Source: a virus (taxonomy: Duplodnaviria > Heunggongvirae > Uroviricota > Caudoviricetes). Taken from it: a stretch of DNA of 64,000 bases. Positions 3,738 through 55,092 of the stretch are shown piece by piece. The position numbers were made by a program, and so were the translations under genes. A model generated the notes under the pieces. The model saw only the letters and a list, made by a program, of their open reading frames with translations, had not been told where the DNA came from and ran no database searches. The stretch is from IMG/VR virus record IMGVR_UViG_2974697560_000001; one strand, 5' to 3'. The first letter of the stretch is position 1; each line of letters begins with the position of its first letter.

Positions 3738-3917
3738 ATGGACGAGGCAATCAGGCCAGAAGACATTCTGCGCCTGTTGCTTATCGCTAACGGCCCTGTC
3801 ACTATCTCTGCTGAGGAGATGGACAGGGCTCTTGGCGATGCAACACACTATCAAGTAGCGGTAAGCTACGAACCATTCAAAGAAGAATTCACAATACACC
3901 TGGAGAACGATGATTAG
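3738..3917 (+). CDS. hypothetical small protein
   Basis: ORF 3726..3917; first ATG at 3738 after gaggagg RBS. Confidence 0.4.
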   Translation: MDEAIRPEDILRLLLIANGPVTISAEEMDRALGDATHYQVAVSYEPFKEEFTIHLENDD

Positions 3918-4284
3918 CGGATTTGAAAACCTGGGCAACGACCTGAGCATTAACGACTATCAGCTAACTGCCAACGAGACTGCGATTTACCCTGAGAATG
4001 GTGAGGCCAGTACAGCAGCTATCAATTACTGCATTCTTGGCCTGGTTGGTGAGGCTGGCGAAATCGCAAACAGCTTCAAGAAGACCATTCGAGACGACAA
4101 TGGCATTGTCACAGGAGAAAAGGCGAAGGCCCTCGCAGCAGAGCTTGGTGACGTTCTCTGGTATGCCGCTAATCTGGCGAGTGAGCTTGGCTATCCGCTT
4201 GAGCTAATTGCGAAGCAGAATCTACAGAAGCTCAAGTCACGTCAGGCACGAGGAGTGATTCAGGGCAGTGGCGACAACCGCTGA
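3910..4284 (+). CDS. mazG: MazG-like nucleoside triphosphate pyrophosphohydrolase
   Basis: 124 aa; LGLVGEAGEIANSFKK and ELGDVLWY MazG-type motifs. Confidence 0.7.
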   Translation: MISGFENLGNDLSINDYQLTANETAIYPENGEASTAAINYCILGLVGEAGEIANSFKKTIRDDNGIVTGEKAKALAAELGDVLWYAANLASELGYPLELIAKQNLQKLKSRQARGVIQGSGDNR

Positions 4285-4303
4285 CGCCTGATATACTGAG
4301 CCT

Positions 4304-4504
4304 ATGGCAACAGAAGCATATTTCCTCCGGGGAGTCGAAGACGAACATCTATTGGTGTTTCGTGGAAACTCTTCGGAGGAAATTTTGTTTATCATTAAGC
4401 GGTTGGCCGCCTGCCGCGACAAAGAAATAAAGGCAATGGCAAGAAAACTTGAAGAGGAATGGAACCAGAGAGAATATGGAAATAGAAGAGGAGATTCTAG
4501 CTAA
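4304..4504 (+). CDS. hypothetical protein
   Basis: ORF track, 66 aa. Confidence 0.35.
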   Translation: MATEAYFLRGVEDEHLLVFRGNSSEEILFIIKRLAACRDKEIKAMARKLEEEWNQREYGNRRGDSS

Positions 4505-5480
4505 GCTAAGCCCAAAGGTATTGGCAAGAGCTAAGATGGCCTCAGAGGTGCAATTGATGAGGCAGCCCACTCCAAGCACAGGGCTGAATTCTGCATTGCG
4601 TGGAGGCATCGGCTATGGACGCCAGACCCTAATCTGGGGTAGCAAGTCAGCAGGAAAATCAACATTCTGTCTAGGGATGCTGGGAATTGCACAGGCGGCC
4701 GGTAAGAAGACGGCCTTTATTGACTCTGAGCAGTCCTTTGACCCCTCTTGGGCAGAGCGTCTAGGAGTAGATACAAGAAAGCTCATCTACACTGACGTAA
4801 AGACAATCGAAGATATGGTAAGCGCAGGAGTCGAGTTCATGAAGGCTGGCATTGATATTGTCACTGTGGACTCCATCTCAGCACTTCTTTCATCAGCCTA
4901 CTTTGAGAAAGATAAGAAGGGTGATGAACTAAAGGAACTATCTGGCACAAAGCAGATTGGTTCAGAGGCAAGAGAGTTGGCTAATGGCGTAAAGATGCTT
5001 AACTACGCCAACAAGAAGACTGCTCTGGTTCTCATTTCCCAGGTACGTAACAAGATTACTACCTATGGAGCTATGCATCAGGCGACCGGTGGTCACGCAG
5101 TGGACTTCTTTAGTTCTACAGTCGTAAAGCTATGGAGTTCTGCTCGTGAGGCAGACCAGATTATGGGTGAGGTCCACAATGGTGACCTTCTGCTAAAGGA
5201 GCCAATTGGTCGTGAAGTAAACTGGACCATTGACAAGAACAAGCTTGGTCCTCCAAACAAGACTGGCAAGTACAATCTCTTCTACGATGGCGACTTCGTA
5301 GGAATCGACAATATTGGTGAAGCAGCCGTTTTGGGTGTTGCGCTTGGCATTGTCGAGAAGAAGGGCGCTTGGCATTACTACGGAGACCTCAAGGTTCAGG
5401 GTGGAGACAATTTCGCCATTGAGCTACGAGCTAATCCTGAATTGGCTGAAAAGCTGGTGAAGGAGGTAGAGGGCGCGTGA
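4476..5480 (+). CDS. RecA-family recombinase/ATPase (phage Sak4/UvsX-like)
   Basis: GSKSAGKST Walker A, AFIDSEQSFDPSWAERLGVD, VDSISALL RecA-like core. Listed start 4449 is TTG; first ATG is 4476. Start uncertain. Confidence 0.65.
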   Translation: MEIEEEILAKLSPKVLARAKMASEVQLMRQPTPSTGLNSALRGGIGYGRQTLIWGSKSAGKSTFCLGMLGIAQAAGKKTAFIDSEQSFDPSWAERLGVDTRKLIYTDVKTIEDMVSAGVEFMKAGIDIVTVDSISALLSSAYFEKDKKGDELKELSGTKQIGSEARELANGVKMLNYANKKTALVLISQVRNKITTYGAMHQATGGHAVDFFSSTVVKLWSSAREADQIMGEVHNGDLLLKEPIGREVNWTIDKNKLGPPNKTGKYNLFYDGDFVGIDNIGEAAVLGVALGIVEKKGAWHYYGDLKVQGGDNFAIELRANPELAEKLVKEVEGA

Positions 5481-50166: not shown

Positions 50167-50226
50167 TGTTCAAAGGAGAAGGTAACCGGTCTTTCTAATA
50201 GAGACCGGTCTTTTCTGTCTCTGGCA

Positions 50227-50541
50227 ATGGAACTCAGTTTGAAGAGTAACATGAAGCAGAGGCATGGCGCAGTCATTGTCAAGGGTGGTAGAGTTCTCTC
50301 ACGAGGCTGGAACCTATTGAAGAATGACCCCAACAACGTAAGCGACGAGCACATTGAGCGCTTTTGCTCTGTGCATGCTGAGGCAATGGCAATCGCCCGA
50401 TGCAAGAAGGCCATAGGTGCAACTATTTATATTGCACGAAACAAGTCAGGCAACGCACGACACTCTAAGCCTTGTGATGCATGTCATGCTGCCATCGATG
50501 CGGCTGGCATCGCAAGGGTTGTGTACACGACTGACCTCTGA
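50227..50541 (+). CDS. cytidine/dCMP deaminase-family zinc enzyme
   Basis: VHAEAMAI (H-A-E) and PCDACHAAI (PCxxC) zinc-binding motifs. Confidence 0.7.
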   Translation: MELSLKSNMKQRHGAVIVKGGRVLSRGWNLLKNDPNNVSDEHIERFCSVHAEAMAIARCKKAIGATIYIARNKSGNARHSKPCDACHAAIDAAGIARVVYTTDL

Positions 50542-50586: not shown

Positions 50587-52497
50587 ATGGAGCCTACTGC
50601 TATTTATGCCGAGCGCAAGGGAAACCTTGCCGGTGAGACTGTTGCAATGAGCGTGGATGCTGCGAGCATGGCGCACGTCATGTCCATCCTGACCGACCTC
50701 TACTCAGACCCCGTTCTGGCTGTCATTCGGGAATACAGCACCAACGCCTTTGACTCTCACATCGAGGCCGGTGTCAGTAAGCCCATTGAGGTCTCCCTTC
50801 CCAATGCTATGTCTCCCTTCTTCAAGGTTCGAGACTATGGTGTTGGCCTGTCTGTGGAAGACATTCGCAATGTCTACTCCAAGTATGGTGCGTCAACCAA
50901 GCGTTCTACCAATGAGCAGGTCGGTATGCTTGGACTTGGCTGCAAGTCTGCACTGACTTACACTCAACAGTTCACTGTTCGTTCTGTCAAGGACGGCCAG
51001 ATGGCTCACGTTGCTATCTCTCGTACCGAGGATGGCTCTGGTGTGATGCAGGTTGTTCACACTCAGGAAGTCGATGAGCCGAATGGCGTGGAGATTGCTG
51101 TTCCTGTCCACCGTCAGAATGATTTTGAATGGAAGGCTCGTGAGTTCTTCAAGTTCTGGGAGCCTGGCACTGTTCTGATTGACGGACAGGAGCCTGCTCG
51201 ATTTGACGGACTCAAGCTGAGCGACGACATTACCCTTGTTGAGGGTAGCAACACAGACTATGTTGTCATGGGTAACGTTGGTTACCGTGTCAGCAATGAG
51301 AACACTCTGTACCGTCCTCAGAATGGCTATTACCACAGCCGCAACTTCGGCATCATTGCCAAGGTTGCCATTGGTTCTGTCAACTTCACGCCTTCTCGTG
51401 AAGACCTGCATTACACTGAGCACACTCTGAGCACGCTTGAGAAGTTGCGTGAGGAAATCAGGAATGCGTTCGTCAACACGATTCAGGCTGCCGTTGATGC
51501 AAAGCCTGACCACCCTTCTGCTCGTGCTGAGTGGGAGAAGTGGCGTCAGCTTTCTGGTCTTGGCACGAATGCAATCACCTACAAGGGTGAGCAGATTCCT
51601 ACTGAGATTTCTCAGCCGCACCTGCGATACCGTCAGGACTATGGTCGAAACTCTGTGAATTTCCATCACAGCATTCGATTCAACGAGATTAACCGTTTTG
51701 TGCTCATCAGTGGCTACGAGAATGGTGAGATTTCTACGTCTCACCGTGCTAAGATGCGTCTGTGGGCAGAACAGAATGGCGTTCCTGCTCGTAGCTTCAT
51801 CGTTACCAAGGGTGTCATTGAGCAGAAGTGGTTCACGGCTGACAAGGCTGTGACGTGGGAAGAGGTCTTTGCTACAAAGAAGCCTCGTGTTCCTCGTACC
51901 GATTCTGTTGAGACATTCTCTGTCATGTCTCCTGGCCAGCGCTATGCACAGATGCAGCGAATTGCTGACCTTGACAAGACCAAGACTCTCATCGTATGGT
52001 CTACTGGTGACGAGAAGTACGAAGACCTGATTGGCCAGATTGTCAGGCTTCATGGCAATGCCTATTCAGTTCGTCTTCCTAAGAACCGTTGGGACAAGTT
52101 CCTGCGTGAGAACGCAAATGCGGTAAAGGTTCAGGACGTTCTGTCTGCTATGGTTAAGAAGGCTTTCGACGCGCTCTCTGACGACGAGAAGCTGAGCATG
52201 AGCATCGACTACTACGACCGTGGTACGCTGATGCGACTCGATGCGAAGCGTATTGACGACCCTGAGTTGGCGCGGTACACTAAGGTGGTACAGAGCATCC
52301 GCAAGAGTGACGCTATCGACCACTACAATGAGGTTGCGAACGTCTGCTCTCGACTCTTCATCGACCGACCTACGGTTGACAAGGTGGAGAGTCCCAAGGT
52401 AAAGTATCCACTACTGGCTGCGGTTGACAGCGCGTTCGGTCTCGCGGTCGAACACTTCTACATCTACGCAAACACTGTTTACTCCGAGGAGAAGTAA
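50587..52497 (+). CDS. GHKL-superfamily ATPase-domain protein (Hsp90/MORC/GyrB-like Bergerat fold)
   Basis: REYSTNAFDS (N box E-x-x-x-N-A-x-D), VRDYGVGLS (G1), GMLGLGCKSAL (G2); 636 aa; aaggag RBS. Confidence 0.55.
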   Translation: MEPTAIYAERKGNLAGETVAMSVDAASMAHVMSILTDLYSDPVLAVIREYSTNAFDSHIEAGVSKPIEVSLPNAMSPFFKVRDYGVGLSVEDIRNVYSKYGASTKRSTNEQVGMLGLGCKSALTYTQQFTVRSVKDGQMAHVAISRTEDGSGVMQVVHTQEVDEPNGVEIAVPVHRQNDFEWKAREFFKFWEPGTVLIDGQEPARFDGLKLSDDITLVEGSNTDYVVMGNVGYRVSNENTLYRPQNGYYHSRNFGIIAKVAIGSVNFTPSREDLHYTEHTLSTLEKLREEIRNAFVNTIQAAVDAKPDHPSARAEWEKWRQLSGLGTNAITYKGEQIPTEISQPHLRYRQDYGRNSVNFHHSIRFNEINRFVLISGYENGEISTSHRAKMRLWAEQNGVPARSFIVTKGVIEQKWFTADKAVTWEEVFATKKPRVPRTDSVETFSVMSPGQRYAQMQRIADLDKTKTLIVWSTGDEKYEDLIGQIVRLHGNAYSVRLPKNRWDKFLRENANAVKVQDVLSAMVKKAFDALSDDEKLSMSIDYYDRGTLMRLDAKRIDDPELARYTKVVQSIRKSDAIDHYNEVANVCSRLFIDRPTVDKVESPKVKYPLLAAVDSAFGLAVEHFYIYANTVYSEEK

Positions 52498-53463
52498 ATG
52501 ACCAACATTCAGTACAGCCTGATTCGGAACTCTGGTGGAGAGGTCATTACCGTTTTCGCAAACGGTGAGATGTTCTCTGCACTGGACACCCACCCGAACT
52601 GGGCCGGTATTAAGGCTGGTGCTGAGGCTGATGACCCGAATGTCATTGACCTCTTTGACATCGGTCGTACTGCTCAGATTCGCTTCGAGCGTCTTTCTGA
52701 GCGTGTCACTGTTCGCAACGGCAAGGTGCACTGGGACAATGTTCCTGTCCACTCTGCTCTGACCGAGCAGGTTGTTCGCTTCATCGAGAATGGTCAGGAA
52801 GACTTCGGTCCTCTTGTTGAGTTCTTCGAGAAGGTTCAGACCAACGAGAACGAGCACAGTCGAGAGCAGCTTTTCGATTGGCTCAAGGTTCACGACTTCA
52901 CGATTCTGCCCAACGGTAACTTCATTGGTTACAAGGGTGTCCGTGTAAATGGTGACTCTTACGAGAGCATCAGTCACGGAAATGCCATCTCCAATGGCAT
53001 TGAGTACACTGGTGCCATTCCTAACCCGATTGGCGCTGTGGTCGAGATGCCTCGTGACCAGGTTCAGCATGACCCTTCTGTGGGTTGCCACACGGGTCTG
53101 CACGTTGGCACTTGGGAATACGCTTCTGGGTTCGCTCAGGGTGCTGTTCTCAAGGTTGAGGTAAACCCTCGTGACGTTGTTTCTGTTCCTACCGATTGCG
53201 GTTGGCAGAAGCTCCGTACTTGTCGCTACACCGTTCTTGAGGTCATTGACGCCCCTGTTGATGGTCCTCTGGACATGGACCCTGCTGTTGCTGATGATGG
53301 CGGACAGGCTCTCTGGGCTGAGGCTGAGGAGCACTACGCCGACATGGCTGCGCAGAGCACCAATCCTATCGTAAAGACGATGGCTGGTGTGGTGGACACT
53401 CGTTTCAATCACCTTCGTCAGAAGCGTGATGCGAACGGACGATTCATTCCCAAGAGCAAGTGA
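52498..53463 (+). CDS. hypothetical protein, start abuts the GHKL gene stop
   Basis: ORF track 321 aa; TAAATG junction. Confidence 0.5.
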   Translation: MTNIQYSLIRNSGGEVITVFANGEMFSALDTHPNWAGIKAGAEADDPNVIDLFDIGRTAQIRFERLSERVTVRNGKVHWDNVPVHSALTEQVVRFIENGQEDFGPLVEFFEKVQTNENEHSREQLFDWLKVHDFTILPNGNFIGYKGVRVNGDSYESISHGNAISNGIEYTGAIPNPIGAVVEMPRDQVQHDPSVGCHTGLHVGTWEYASGFAQGAVLKVEVNPRDVVSVPTDCGWQKLRTCRYTVLEVIDAPVDGPLDMDPAVADDGGQALWAEAEEHYADMAAQSTNPIVKTMAGVVDTRFNHLRQKRDANGRFIPKSK

Positions 53464-53467
53464 TGTC

Positions 53468-53486
53468 AGGCCCCTTCGGGGGCCTT
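53468..53486 (+). terminator. hairpin AGGCCCC-TTCG-GGGGCCT
   Basis: read directly. Confidence 0.6.
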
Positions 53487-53496
53487 TCGTCATCTC

Positions 53497-53526
53497 TTGA
53501 CACAGACATCTACAAGATGTTAGAGT
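53497..53526 (+). promoter_or_regulatory. promoter TTGACA-N18-TAGAGT(TAGT)
   Basis: recurring motif copy. Confidence 0.5.
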
Positions 53527-53557
53527 TAGTACAACGACGAACGAAAGGAAGGGCGTC

Positions 53558-54325
53558 ATGAAGATTGTCATCGCAGGCGACTGGCATGGTGACACGAATC
53601 ACGCTCGAAAGGTTGTCCGTCTCGCTGCCGAGAATGGCGTAAAGGTCATCATGCAGGTTGGTGACTTTGGCTATTGGGAGCACGAGGTTGACGGATTCAA
53701 CTACCTTGACGCTCTGAATGATGAGTGTCGCAAGCATGGTGTCAAGGTCTACTTTGTGGCCGGTAACCATGAGAACTGGGACAGGCTTGACTGGATGGAG
53801 AAGAATAACCCAAAGACCTACGCAGGTCTGACGGTAATCCGTTCTCACATTCGCTACACTGGCCGTGTGAAGCGCTGGAGCGTGGATGGCAAGTGGTTCC
53901 AGGCTGTTGGTGGCGCAGTCTCTATCGACAAGGCTCACCGTACACCTGGTAAGTCTTGGTGGTCTCAGGAGAAGGTTCCTGAGAATGTGGTAAAGGGTCT
54001 GGAGAATGCTAGTCGTCAGTCTGACTACCTTCTTACTCATGACGCTCCCACGTGCGCACCATTCAGGTTCCGGCTCAAGAATGACCCTGACTCTCAGATG
54101 CATCGAGAGCTGATGAATCGGATTGGTCGAGTCGTGAAGCCAAAGATTTGGTTCCACGGACACTACCACACATGGATGGAGAACTACAGTTTCATGCACC
54201 AGAGCGGCTACAGCAGCGTGTACGGTCTTGAAATGAATGGTGACTTCTACCACTGTGTTGTCCTTGACACTGAGAACGATTCAGTGCAGACTAGGACTGG
54301 TAAGGTCATCGAGCTTGAGCAGTAA
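53558..54325 (+). CDS. calcineurin-like metallophosphoesterase (Mre11/SbcD-like fold)
   Basis: IAGDWHGD, GDFGYWEH, VAGNHENW, HGHYHTW metal-ligand motifs. Confidence 0.7.
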   Translation: MKIVIAGDWHGDTNHARKVVRLAAENGVKVIMQVGDFGYWEHEVDGFNYLDALNDECRKHGVKVYFVAGNHENWDRLDWMEKNNPKTYAGLTVIRSHIRYTGRVKRWSVDGKWFQAVGGAVSIDKAHRTPGKSWWSQEKVPENVVKGLENASRQSDYLLTHDAPTCAPFRFRLKNDPDSQMHRELMNRIGRVVKPKIWFHGHYHTWMENYSFMHQSGYSSVYGLEMNGDFYHCVVLDTENDSVQTRTGKVIELEQ

Positions 54326-54376
54326 CCTCCGCTTCATAATCAAGTCTGTGTTACTCTTTTAGAGAATTCTTCAAGA

Positions 54377-54772
54377 ATGCGCAGACTTGAGGAGAAGGAG
54401 GTGAAATCAAAAATGGCAGAATACAAGTACGAGCCAAAGACTTCTCAGGACGTTGTTGCTCCACACCTTGACCCACTAGCGGACGAGGATGCAAAGCGTG
54501 CTGAGGATGCAGGCGTAAAGGACTCAGCTTTCGTTGACTACGAGGCCGCTCTAGAGAATTACCAGAGCCGTCCAGACGTAGAGACTCTAGCTGCCCGTCG
54601 TGCCCGTGAGGGTGGATGGAAGTTCGAAGACGCTGCATTCCGTCGTTCTGCAAAGGACGATGAGCTAACCGGTGGTGGTGTTGTCACCTCTGACCAGGCA
54701 ACTGAAAAGCAGCCTGAGCAGCAGAAGGAAGTAAAGGACACTACGCCAGTAGCTCGCAAGGCAACTAAGTAA
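54377..54772 (+). CDS. hypothetical acidic protein
   Basis: ORF track 131 aa; ggagg RBS. Confidence 0.45.
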   Translation: MRRLEEKEVKSKMAEYKYEPKTSQDVVAPHLDPLADEDAKRAEDAGVKDSAFVDYEAALENYQSRPDVETLAARRAREGGWKFEDAAFRRSAKDDELTGGGVVTSDQATEKQPEQQKEVKDTTPVARKATK

Positions 54773-54852
54773 GCGAAGACTTAATAATTGAACAGGGAGG
54801 TTAATAGCCTCCCTGTTCTGTCATCAGTAAAACAAGAAAAGAGAAAGCGATT

Positions 54853-55092
54853 ATGTCTGTTGTTCTAGACCACAACTCCGTTGAGAAGTTCGTTACCGCC
54901 CAGAAGGAAAAGGGCAATGACGTTCGCTGGGAGGGTTGGGACCTGGTTTTCTTCCGCAAGAGCAAGAATCATTCTGGTTGGTCAAAGCGTGACGGTGCCT
55001 ACCGTGACGGCAACTGGGGATTCCAGACTCGCATTGCGGTTGGTGCCGATGGAATGTGGAGGGTTCCTAACCGTAATGTCAAGCATTCTTGA
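54853..55092 (+). CDS. hypothetical protein
   Basis: ORF track 79 aa. Confidence 0.4.
   Translation: MSVVLDHNSVEKFVTAQKEKGNDVRWEGWDLVFFRKSKNHSGWSKRDGAYRDGNWGFQTRIAVGADGMWRVPNRNVKHS

Follow-up and report, generated by a model that had tools for sequence, protein, structure and literature searches.

A T4-type rIIA-rIIB gene pair in Streptomyces phage Samisti12, a likely counter-defence locus with a metallophosphoesterase gene beside it

The DNA considered here is a 64,000-nucleotide stretch of a caudoviral genome (IMG/VR record IMGVR_UViG_2974697560_000001), called the window below. Three genes lie in succession within it; they encode a 636-residue ATPase of the GHKL (Bergerat-fold) class, a 321-residue protein and a calcineurin-like metallophosphoesterase (MPE). 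The window has 100% identity to Streptomyces phage Samisti12; this 133.7-kb soil virus belongs to the family Stanwilliamsviridae, and its isolation host is S. griseus. All three open reading frames (ORFs) are real genes, with profile matches of E 1e-65 to 1e-133 and thousands of homologues, and RefSeq lists them as ‘RIIA lysis inhibitor’, ‘RIIB lysis inhibitor’ and, for the third, ‘metallo-phosphoesterase’; the labels ‘rIIA-like’ and ‘rIIB-like’ are used in many of the sister phages. From the similarities described below, the first two genes are identified as the Streptomyces-phage version of the rIIA-rIIB pair that was originally defined in coliphage T4, as is already annotated publicly. The finding is thus an ordinary one, the rII genes of a sequenced phage that are already known, and the suggestion in an earlier note on this DNA that the function could be new is not borne out. 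What that note had read directly from the letters, namely the three ORFs, the Bergerat motifs, a TAAATG junction, a hairpin, a promoter-like site and the MPE, holds in full.

The 636-residue protein belongs to the rIIA family along its length. It matches the PHROG 612 (RIIA) profile with E 2.7e-133, residues 1-615 aligning to positions 1-704 of 725, and its C-terminal half alone (residues 331-636) matches positions 378-704 of the same profile at 2.3e-15; T4 rIIA (NP_049616) is itself a phrog_612 member. When compared directly with T4 rIIA by BLASTP, the N-terminal ~330 residues align (2e-24, 27% identity over 354 columns), and a comparison of profiles gives an hhalign probability of 99.4. rIIA is a soluble protein of 72 kDa, and no transmembrane helices are predicted in any of the three window proteins.

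The three Bergerat motifs of rIIA begin at residue 48 (REYSTNAFDS, the N box), residue 81 (VRDYGVGLS, G1) and residue 113 (GMLGLGCKSAL, G2). AlphaFold2 models of rIIA and rIIB were obtained with a predicted local distance difference test score (pLDDT) of 83. Around 150 residues of rIIA align to isolated GHKL domains, and this rises to 230-290 residues with two-domain fragments; therefore rIIA has a transducer-like second domain. Accordingly, the first ~325 residues are modelled as two domains, an ATP-binding GHKL domain and then the transducer-like one, as in topoisomerase II and topoisomerase VI subunit B (Topo VI-B), MutL, Hsp90 and MORC. That the gene encodes a genuine GHKL ATPase, as had been proposed, agrees with both the motifs and the two-domain ATPase fold. 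Of the further domains that the earlier note had proposed to look for, the transducer-like domain is present, but neither a Toprim nor any other catalytic domain was detected in rIIA by Pfam scan or structure comparison.

The residues of the ATP site do not vary among 55 close homologues or across 8 distant families, the latter compared by aligning eight rIIA proteins of different viral families (~20% identity). In the N box these are the catalytic glutamate E49, the Mg-binding asparagine N53 and D56; they are followed by the adenine-binding D83 with G85 and G87 of G1, by K105, and by G113, G116, G118 and K120 of the G2 box. A further invariant pair, R271-E272, lies in the second domain. In GHL ATPases the gamma-phosphate is contacted by Hsp90 R380, GyrB K337 and MutL K307, and by analogy with these residues R271 is a candidate gamma-phosphate sensor. 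The invariant ATP-site residues and the R-E pair of the second domain are concrete targets for mutation. All of the GHKL invariants are also found in a protein of Escherichia phage SP22 that is labelled ‘DNA ligase’; its gene (7-2367 of the stretch compared) lies directly upstream of rIIB, the product aligns as an rIIA homologue, and the label is a probable misannotation in the public record.

The 321-residue protein, which had been taken as unknown, is rIIB. It matches PHROG 609 (RIIB) with E 1.7e-65, and T4 rIIB (NP_049889) by BLASTP with 2e-30 and 31% identity, residues 8-248 aligning to T4 residues 79-305; hhalign gives a probability of 99.8 against T4 rIIB, and the homologues carry PF26926. 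In the AlphaFold2 model a small beta-sheet at the N-terminus is followed by a helical region (residues 35-131), a very confident beta-rich core (residues 140-250) and a low-confidence C-terminal tail (residues 256-321). Across the eight families the invariant residues of rIIB are F109, G140, K146, G179, M184, V189, C197, G200-L201-H202, Y208, F212, P224, D226, K238, R240 and Y244, a pattern that is typical of an active or binding site.

At the N-terminus of T4 rIIB and of rIIB from EP75 (Ackermannviridae) there is a helix-turn-helix (HTH). No HTH match was obtained with Pfam in the window rIIB or in 52 homologues, and the alignment of the window protein begins at T4 residue 75. The HTH is lineage-specific and its absence is no bar to family membership; since it is missing here, the beta-rich core and its invariant K/C/H/D/K/R/Y residues, and not HTH DNA binding, should account for the conserved function. 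When the 52 homologues were scanned with Pfam at E values up to 10, only noise and one KTSC fusion were returned, and no solved-structure relatives of rIIB were found by sequence or profile search of the PDB. An exhaustive profile search gave a family size of 8,441 clusters at 50% identity; among the 150 matches listed, all of them close relatives, there were no informative domain fusions. The C-terminus, as judged from the sequences, is a variable add-on site. In Wakanda rIIB (3828-4937 of the stretch compared) there is a Cys-rich acidic C-terminal extension, CYECGENGCEGECMECDSCGSTWCYDYECQNCDDCGEHETDCRCCDECGYPDCDCED, which resembles a metal-binding tail, and the metagenomic rIIB homologue P0232 has a C-terminal KTSC domain.

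The two rII genes are joined without a gap. The end of rIIA reads ...GAGGAGAAG TAA ATG..., with the stop codon at 52495-52497 and the rIIB start codon at 52498-52500, and a Shine-Dalgarno sequence, GAGGAG, lies at 52486-52491 within the last rIIA codons; rIIB is therefore predicted to be translationally coupled to rIIA. The order rIIA then rIIB is kept in every phage family examined (T4, SSE121, EP75, Ka4 and the Stanwilliamsviridae, including Wakanda and SparkleGoddess), and the genes overlap or abut in SSE121, Ka4 and Samisti12. Of the 1,055 positions of the PHROG 609 profile, rIIA proteins match 19-310 and rIIB proteins 751-1049, so that a fused rIIA-rIIB ORF (725 + 312 residues, ~1,037) is probably its representative. 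Such a fusion, if real, would hint in the Rosetta-stone sense that the two proteins interact physically; alternatively it may be an artefact, stemming from a deletion mutant or from annotation. No natural fusion was found, the genes being separate in SSE121, EP75, Ka4 and T4.

The GC-rich, UUCG-loop hairpin at the end of rIIB is probably a terminator, an attenuator or an RNA-stability element. A hairpin lies 3' of rIIB in all three lineages compared (Samisti12, Wakanda and SparkleGoddess), the stem sequence being different in each. Its core in Samisti12, CCTTCGGG, is present 10 times in the window, where 1.2 copies would be expected; most copies are on the coding strand, and some might lie inside tRNA genes. 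In Wakanda such a hairpin sits between rIIA and rIIB. Because it recurs and there divides the two rII genes, it is best described as an intergenic punctuation element, and its candidacy as a unique module or operon boundary was downgraded. The promoter-like site behind it consists of TTGACA, an 18-nucleotide spacer and TG-n-TAGAGT, with 10 of 12 consensus matches and an extended -10 TG; it is a consensus match only. The features of the locus are collected in Table 1.

Table 1. Features of the rII locus and its surroundings; positions are those of the window, and aa denotes amino acids.
Feature	Position	Strand	Evidence or detail
dCMP deaminase gene	50239-50541	+	Pfam dCMP_cyt_deam_1 9e-12, phrog_174 1e-26, RefSeq
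rIIA, 636 aa, T4-type end to end	50587-52497	+	phrog_612, BLASTP, hhalign, RefSeq
rIIA N-terminal ATPase module (~aa 36-325), modelled as GHKL/Bergerat plus transducer-like domain	50692-51561	+	
rIIA C-terminal half (aa 331-636), rIIA-specific alpha/beta and helical, no known-fold match	51577-52497	+	
rIIA/rIIB junction, predicted translational coupling	52486-52500	+	read from sequence
rIIB, 321 aa	52498-53463	+	phrog_609, BLASTP, hhalign
rIIB conserved beta-rich core (~aa 132-255)	52891-53262	+	invariant K146, C197, H202, D226, K238, R240, Y244
UUCG-tetraloop hairpin, GC-rich, overlapping the rIIB stop codon	53461-53492	+	-21.3 kcal/mol, z -4.67
Promoter-like site	53497-53526	+	consensus scan
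Calcineurin-like metallophosphoesterase (MPE), 255 aa	53558-54325	+	Pfam Metallophos 1e-13, phrog_1649 9e-72
CCTTCGGG copies	24259, 33215, 36275, 36334, 44595, 45592, 53473, 57624	+	
CCTTCGGG copies	49293, 63709	-	

The third gene encodes a metallophosphoesterase with the full set of metal-ligand motifs, as had been noticed: GDWHGD (residue 7), GDFG (35), GNHE (69), THDAP (160) and GHYH (201) are invariant or nearly so in 51 homologues. Its description as Mre11/SbcD-like is not supported. When the family profile was compared with the PDB, Dbr1-type enzymes ranked first (E 7e-5, full length), whereas Mre11/SbcD reached only E 0.17-0.9 over ~60 N-terminal motif residues, the motifs being a feature of the superfamily; the best NCBIfam match was YfcE-type, at 22.9 bits and under its cut-off. 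There is no SbcC-like or Rad50 neighbour in the Samisti12 annotation, and the protein has only 255 residues. Because the catalytic domain of Dbr1 is the closest solved structure to the MPE profile, it is a possibility that the enzyme is a 2'-5' phosphodiesterase, which could act on branched RNA or multicopy single-stranded DNA (msDNA), or on 2'-5'-linked signalling nucleotides. The MPE gene is followed by a 131-residue ORF at 54377-54772 that matches phrog_12953 (unknown function; E 4e-76), and an ORF of similar size occurs there in SparkleGoddess and Wakanda. A second metallophosphoesterase gene of Samisti12 (54168-54926 of its record, upstream of the window start) adjoins an HNH endonuclease gene.

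For the function of the pair the evidence comes from relatives. The RexAB proteins of phage lambda are a sensor and a membrane channel, which abort infection by depolarisation. T4 needs rIIA and rIIB only in hosts that express lambda RexAB, rII knock-downs having no phenotype without Rex, and divergent rII pairs of less than 40% identity (T4, MM02, EdH4, SUSP1 and N4, from four subfamilies) all counter lambda RexAB (PMC11879866). Similarly, transposon insertions in T4 rIIA and rIIB are depleted only with RexAB present (bioRxiv 10.1101/2025.11.20.689424). E. coli is poisoned by RIIB alone, which also sets off a Lysobacter gasdermin defence system (PMC10312443), and Rex-like exclusion systems, although highly divergent, are found in temperate actinobacteriophages (PMC11077077). 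By homology, the rII genes of Samisti12 most likely form an ATP-driven counter-defence pair directed against Rex-type abortive infection. Taking the locus as a whole, we hold with considerable confidence that rIIA-rIIB is a T4-type rII locus, likely an ATP-driven counter-defence pair, and that the MPE gene would be an independently transcribed accessory gene.

The mechanism we propose would run as follows. Translational coupling would allow rIIA and rIIB to be made in fixed proportion, and the two proteins would form a soluble complex and act together early in infection. The GHL-type ATPase of rIIA would cycle between open and ATP-clamped dimers, as other GHL ATPases do, with R271/E272 in the second domain sensing the gamma-phosphate. 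The conserved core of rIIB would supply the effector or binding surface, and the variable C-terminus of rIIA together with the termini of rIIB may tune specificity. The outcome would be that a Rex-type system (sensor plus membrane-depolarising channel), or another abortive-infection system of Streptomyces lysogens, is kept from firing.

Several points weigh against this account. The rII locus is still described as ‘poorly understood’ (PMC8594841, PMC7824862), and the ATPase activity, the dimerisation and the rIIA-rIIB contact are all inferred. The genetics of rII are those of T4, T6, N4 and other coliphages, and they are carried over to Samisti12 by homology. Using tblastn, lambda-type RexA was found in only 19 phage records, none of them from an actinophage, and the published Rex-like actinophage proteins are too divergent for such a test; the target here therefore cannot be lambda Rex itself. 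rII is spread far wider than Rex, which argues for a more general trigger or target. In this respect the presence of a complete rIIA-rIIB pair of T4 type in an actinobacterial lytic siphovirus without detectable lambda-type Rex reinforces the notion of RexAB as one target of a far more general system.

In the earlier note the locus had been presented as a three-gene module, and it could be supposed that the genes make up one machine, in which a GHKL ATPase and an adaptor regulate the MPE as a nuclease, the whole being a new MORC-like defence or anti-defence module. The genes are indeed co-oriented and close, Samisti12, Wakanda and SparkleGoddess, which represent two subfamilies of the Stanwilliamsviridae, all have the order rIIA-rIIB-MPE-...-WhiB, and pairings of GHKL proteins with effectors exist in known conflict systems. 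However, the hairpin and the promoter-like site part the MPE gene from rIIB, and in relatives other genes are inserted at this point, two small ORFs in SparkleGoddess and an HNH/endonuclease VII gene in EGole; the latter marks the rIIB-MPE spacer as a homing-endonuclease insertion site. Among the phages examined, the MPE gene stands beside rIIB only within the Stanwilliamsviridae: rIIA-rIIB has no MPE neighbour in five other families, represented by T4, Felixounavirus SP22, SSE121 (Vequintavirinae), EP75 (Ackermannviridae) and the N4-like Ka4, and MPE occurs with no rII nearby in mycobacteriophage Minerva, Rhodococcus phage Trina and Rhizobium phage RHph_TM3_3_6. Homologues of rIIB are present in 2,871 of 50,697 phage records, mostly of enterobacterial, Vibrio and Pseudomonas phages, as against 340 records with MPE homologues, mostly of Mycobacterium (146) and Streptomyces (127) phages; at least 88% of the rIIB-bearing records thus lack the MPE family, and among Streptomyces phages the records with MPE outnumber the 93 with rIIB. 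Nor did any PADLOC system model match at a meaningful score (only TmtA, E 0.006, 12.6 bits). The MPE gene is a lineage-specific neighbour of rII and not a conserved partner, and a single three-gene machine is very improbable. The order kept across two subfamilies does leave room, against our account, for a family-specific link to MPE, but since the flanking genes out to WhiB are equally colinear it looks like general synteny. The supposed resemblance to MORC-like or defence modules therefore survives in part, in the two-domain ATPase fold and in the standing of rIIA and rIIB as classic counter-defence genes; it fails in that no PADLOC model applies and the MPE effector is not conserved beside rIIA. 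The first gene had further been suggested to code for a divergent type II topoisomerase ATPase, and in sequence searches of the PDB and of NCBIfam it is indeed Topo VI-B that rIIA matches best. The PDB matches reach E 0.013 and cover residues 46-130 only, while that in NCBIfam, top6b, scores 35.6 bits against a cut-off of 380.7 bits and covers residues 44-156 only; Hsp90, MORC and MutL match equally well, and rIIA matches its own family end to end and aligns end to end with neither GyrB nor ParE. The 271 annotated features of the Samisti12 genome include no GyrA, ParC, gp52, Top6A, topoisomerase or gyrase. Since the matches are confined to the GHKL and transducer regions, and since both a Toprim domain and an annotated partner are missing, the topoisomerase reading has practically no chance of being correct and was rejected.

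Two further alternatives accept the rII assignment and differ in what the proteins would do. It is conceivable, though rather unlikely, that rIIA and rIIB act on phage DNA, replication complexes or transcription, either by remodelling or masking the nucleoprotein intermediates that trigger defence or by regulating transcription; the membrane and the defence proteins would then not be their direct targets. Two-domain GHL ATPases mostly work on DNA (topoisomerases, MutL and MORC), T4 and EP75 rIIB have the N-terminal HTH, Iyer et al. class rIIB as a transcription factor (PMC7824862) and RexA is a DNA-binding protein (PMC11077077). The HTH, however, is absent from the window rIIB and its whole family, so that DNA binding of that type is no part of the conserved core, and the lack of a phenotype of rII knock-downs when Rex is absent (PMC11879866) is also contrary to such a role. 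The other alternative concerns the rIIB core, which might be a cryptic, highly divergent ADP-ribosyltransferase (ART) fold, with K146, H202 and D226 in place of the H-Y-E/D triad and with NAD+ or a nucleotide bound or used under the control of rIIA. The best Foldseek match of rIIB is to an ART, Arr-2, the three residues are invariant across the 8 families, and RIIB alone is toxic in E. coli (PMC10312443). Yet that match is not significant (E 0.26, probability 0.15), hhalign of the rIIB family against the verified Arr-2 sequence is null (probability 0.16%), and there is no Pfam ART match among the 52 rIIB members and no PDB profile match; the triad correspondence was read from sequence patterns and not from superposition, and no paper linking rIIB to ARTs was found in the literature searched. 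We regard the ART reading as improbable. If it were true, rIIA would be a GHL-type ATPase that gates or targets an ART-like domain of rIIB, rII would neutralise abortive-infection systems by NAD+-dependent modification or nucleotide binding, and biochemistry would gain its first foothold on two genes that genetics has known since the 1950s. The residual value of the locus lies in this weak ART-fold lead, in the HTH-less architecture of rIIB and in the list of invariant residues for mutagenesis.

Some observations concern the surroundings of the rII pair. The dCMP deaminase gene lies directly upstream of rIIA with no terminator between them, and the two are possibly co-transcribed; a terminator-like hairpin at 50185-50209 precedes the deaminase gene. 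It is not part of the rII pair. The unrelated Ka4, an N4-like phage of Pseudomonas, also has a dCMP deaminase gene (905-1489 of the stretch compared), placed two genes ahead of rIIA, and its presence near rIIA in both phages may be a coincidence or a recurring association. Further upstream of rII, at ~13600-44200, there is a region dense in tRNA genes (~44 in the genome), and in it there are also genes for a tmRNA, a Ro-like RNA-binding protein, an RNA ligase and a polynucleotide kinase. Together these make up a toolkit for RNA repair and translational autonomy, which hints at counter-measures against anticodon nucleases.

Compared with known systems, the MPE has all five motifs in common with Dbr1 and with generic calcineurin-like phosphoesterases (YfcE, MJ0936). 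It differs from Dbr1 in its length of 255 residues, which leaves out the Dbr1 C-terminal domain, and in motif I, where it has Asp; many Dbr1 enzymes carry Cys at this place. Its likeness to Mre11/SbcD is confined to the N-terminal motifs, with no Rad50 or SbcC partner. As regards the GHL- and MORC-type ATPases (the 43-kDa fragments of GyrB/ParE, Topo VI-B, the N-terminal domain of MutL, the N and M domains of Hsp90, and MORC2/3), rIIA lacks the Toprim, endonuclease, CW and client-binding domains of these proteins, its C-terminal half is found in rIIA only, and its sequence scores far under every family cut-off.

The comparison with T4 is much closer. T4 rIIA is longer (725 residues against 636), the identity is only 27% with the pairwise alignment limited to the first ~330 residues, and the host of Samisti12 is a Gram-positive actinobacterium in which lambda-type Rex is not detectable. 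The rIIB of Samisti12 is without the N-terminal 75-residue HTH region of the T4 protein, and it has a 14-residue beta-hairpin insertion (residues 155-170) and a 65-residue low-confidence C-terminal tail. Nevertheless, the rIIB cores correspond (residues 4-248 against T4 75-305, 31% identical) and share the invariants K146, C197, GLH200-202, D226, K238, R240 and Y244, as well as the predicted translational link to rIIA. The two rIIA proteins, likewise, have the same N-terminal module of GHKL and transducer-like domains with identical N-box, G1 and G2 residues, belong to the same PHROG over their full length including the C-terminal half, are soluble with no transmembrane helix, and are each followed directly by rIIB.

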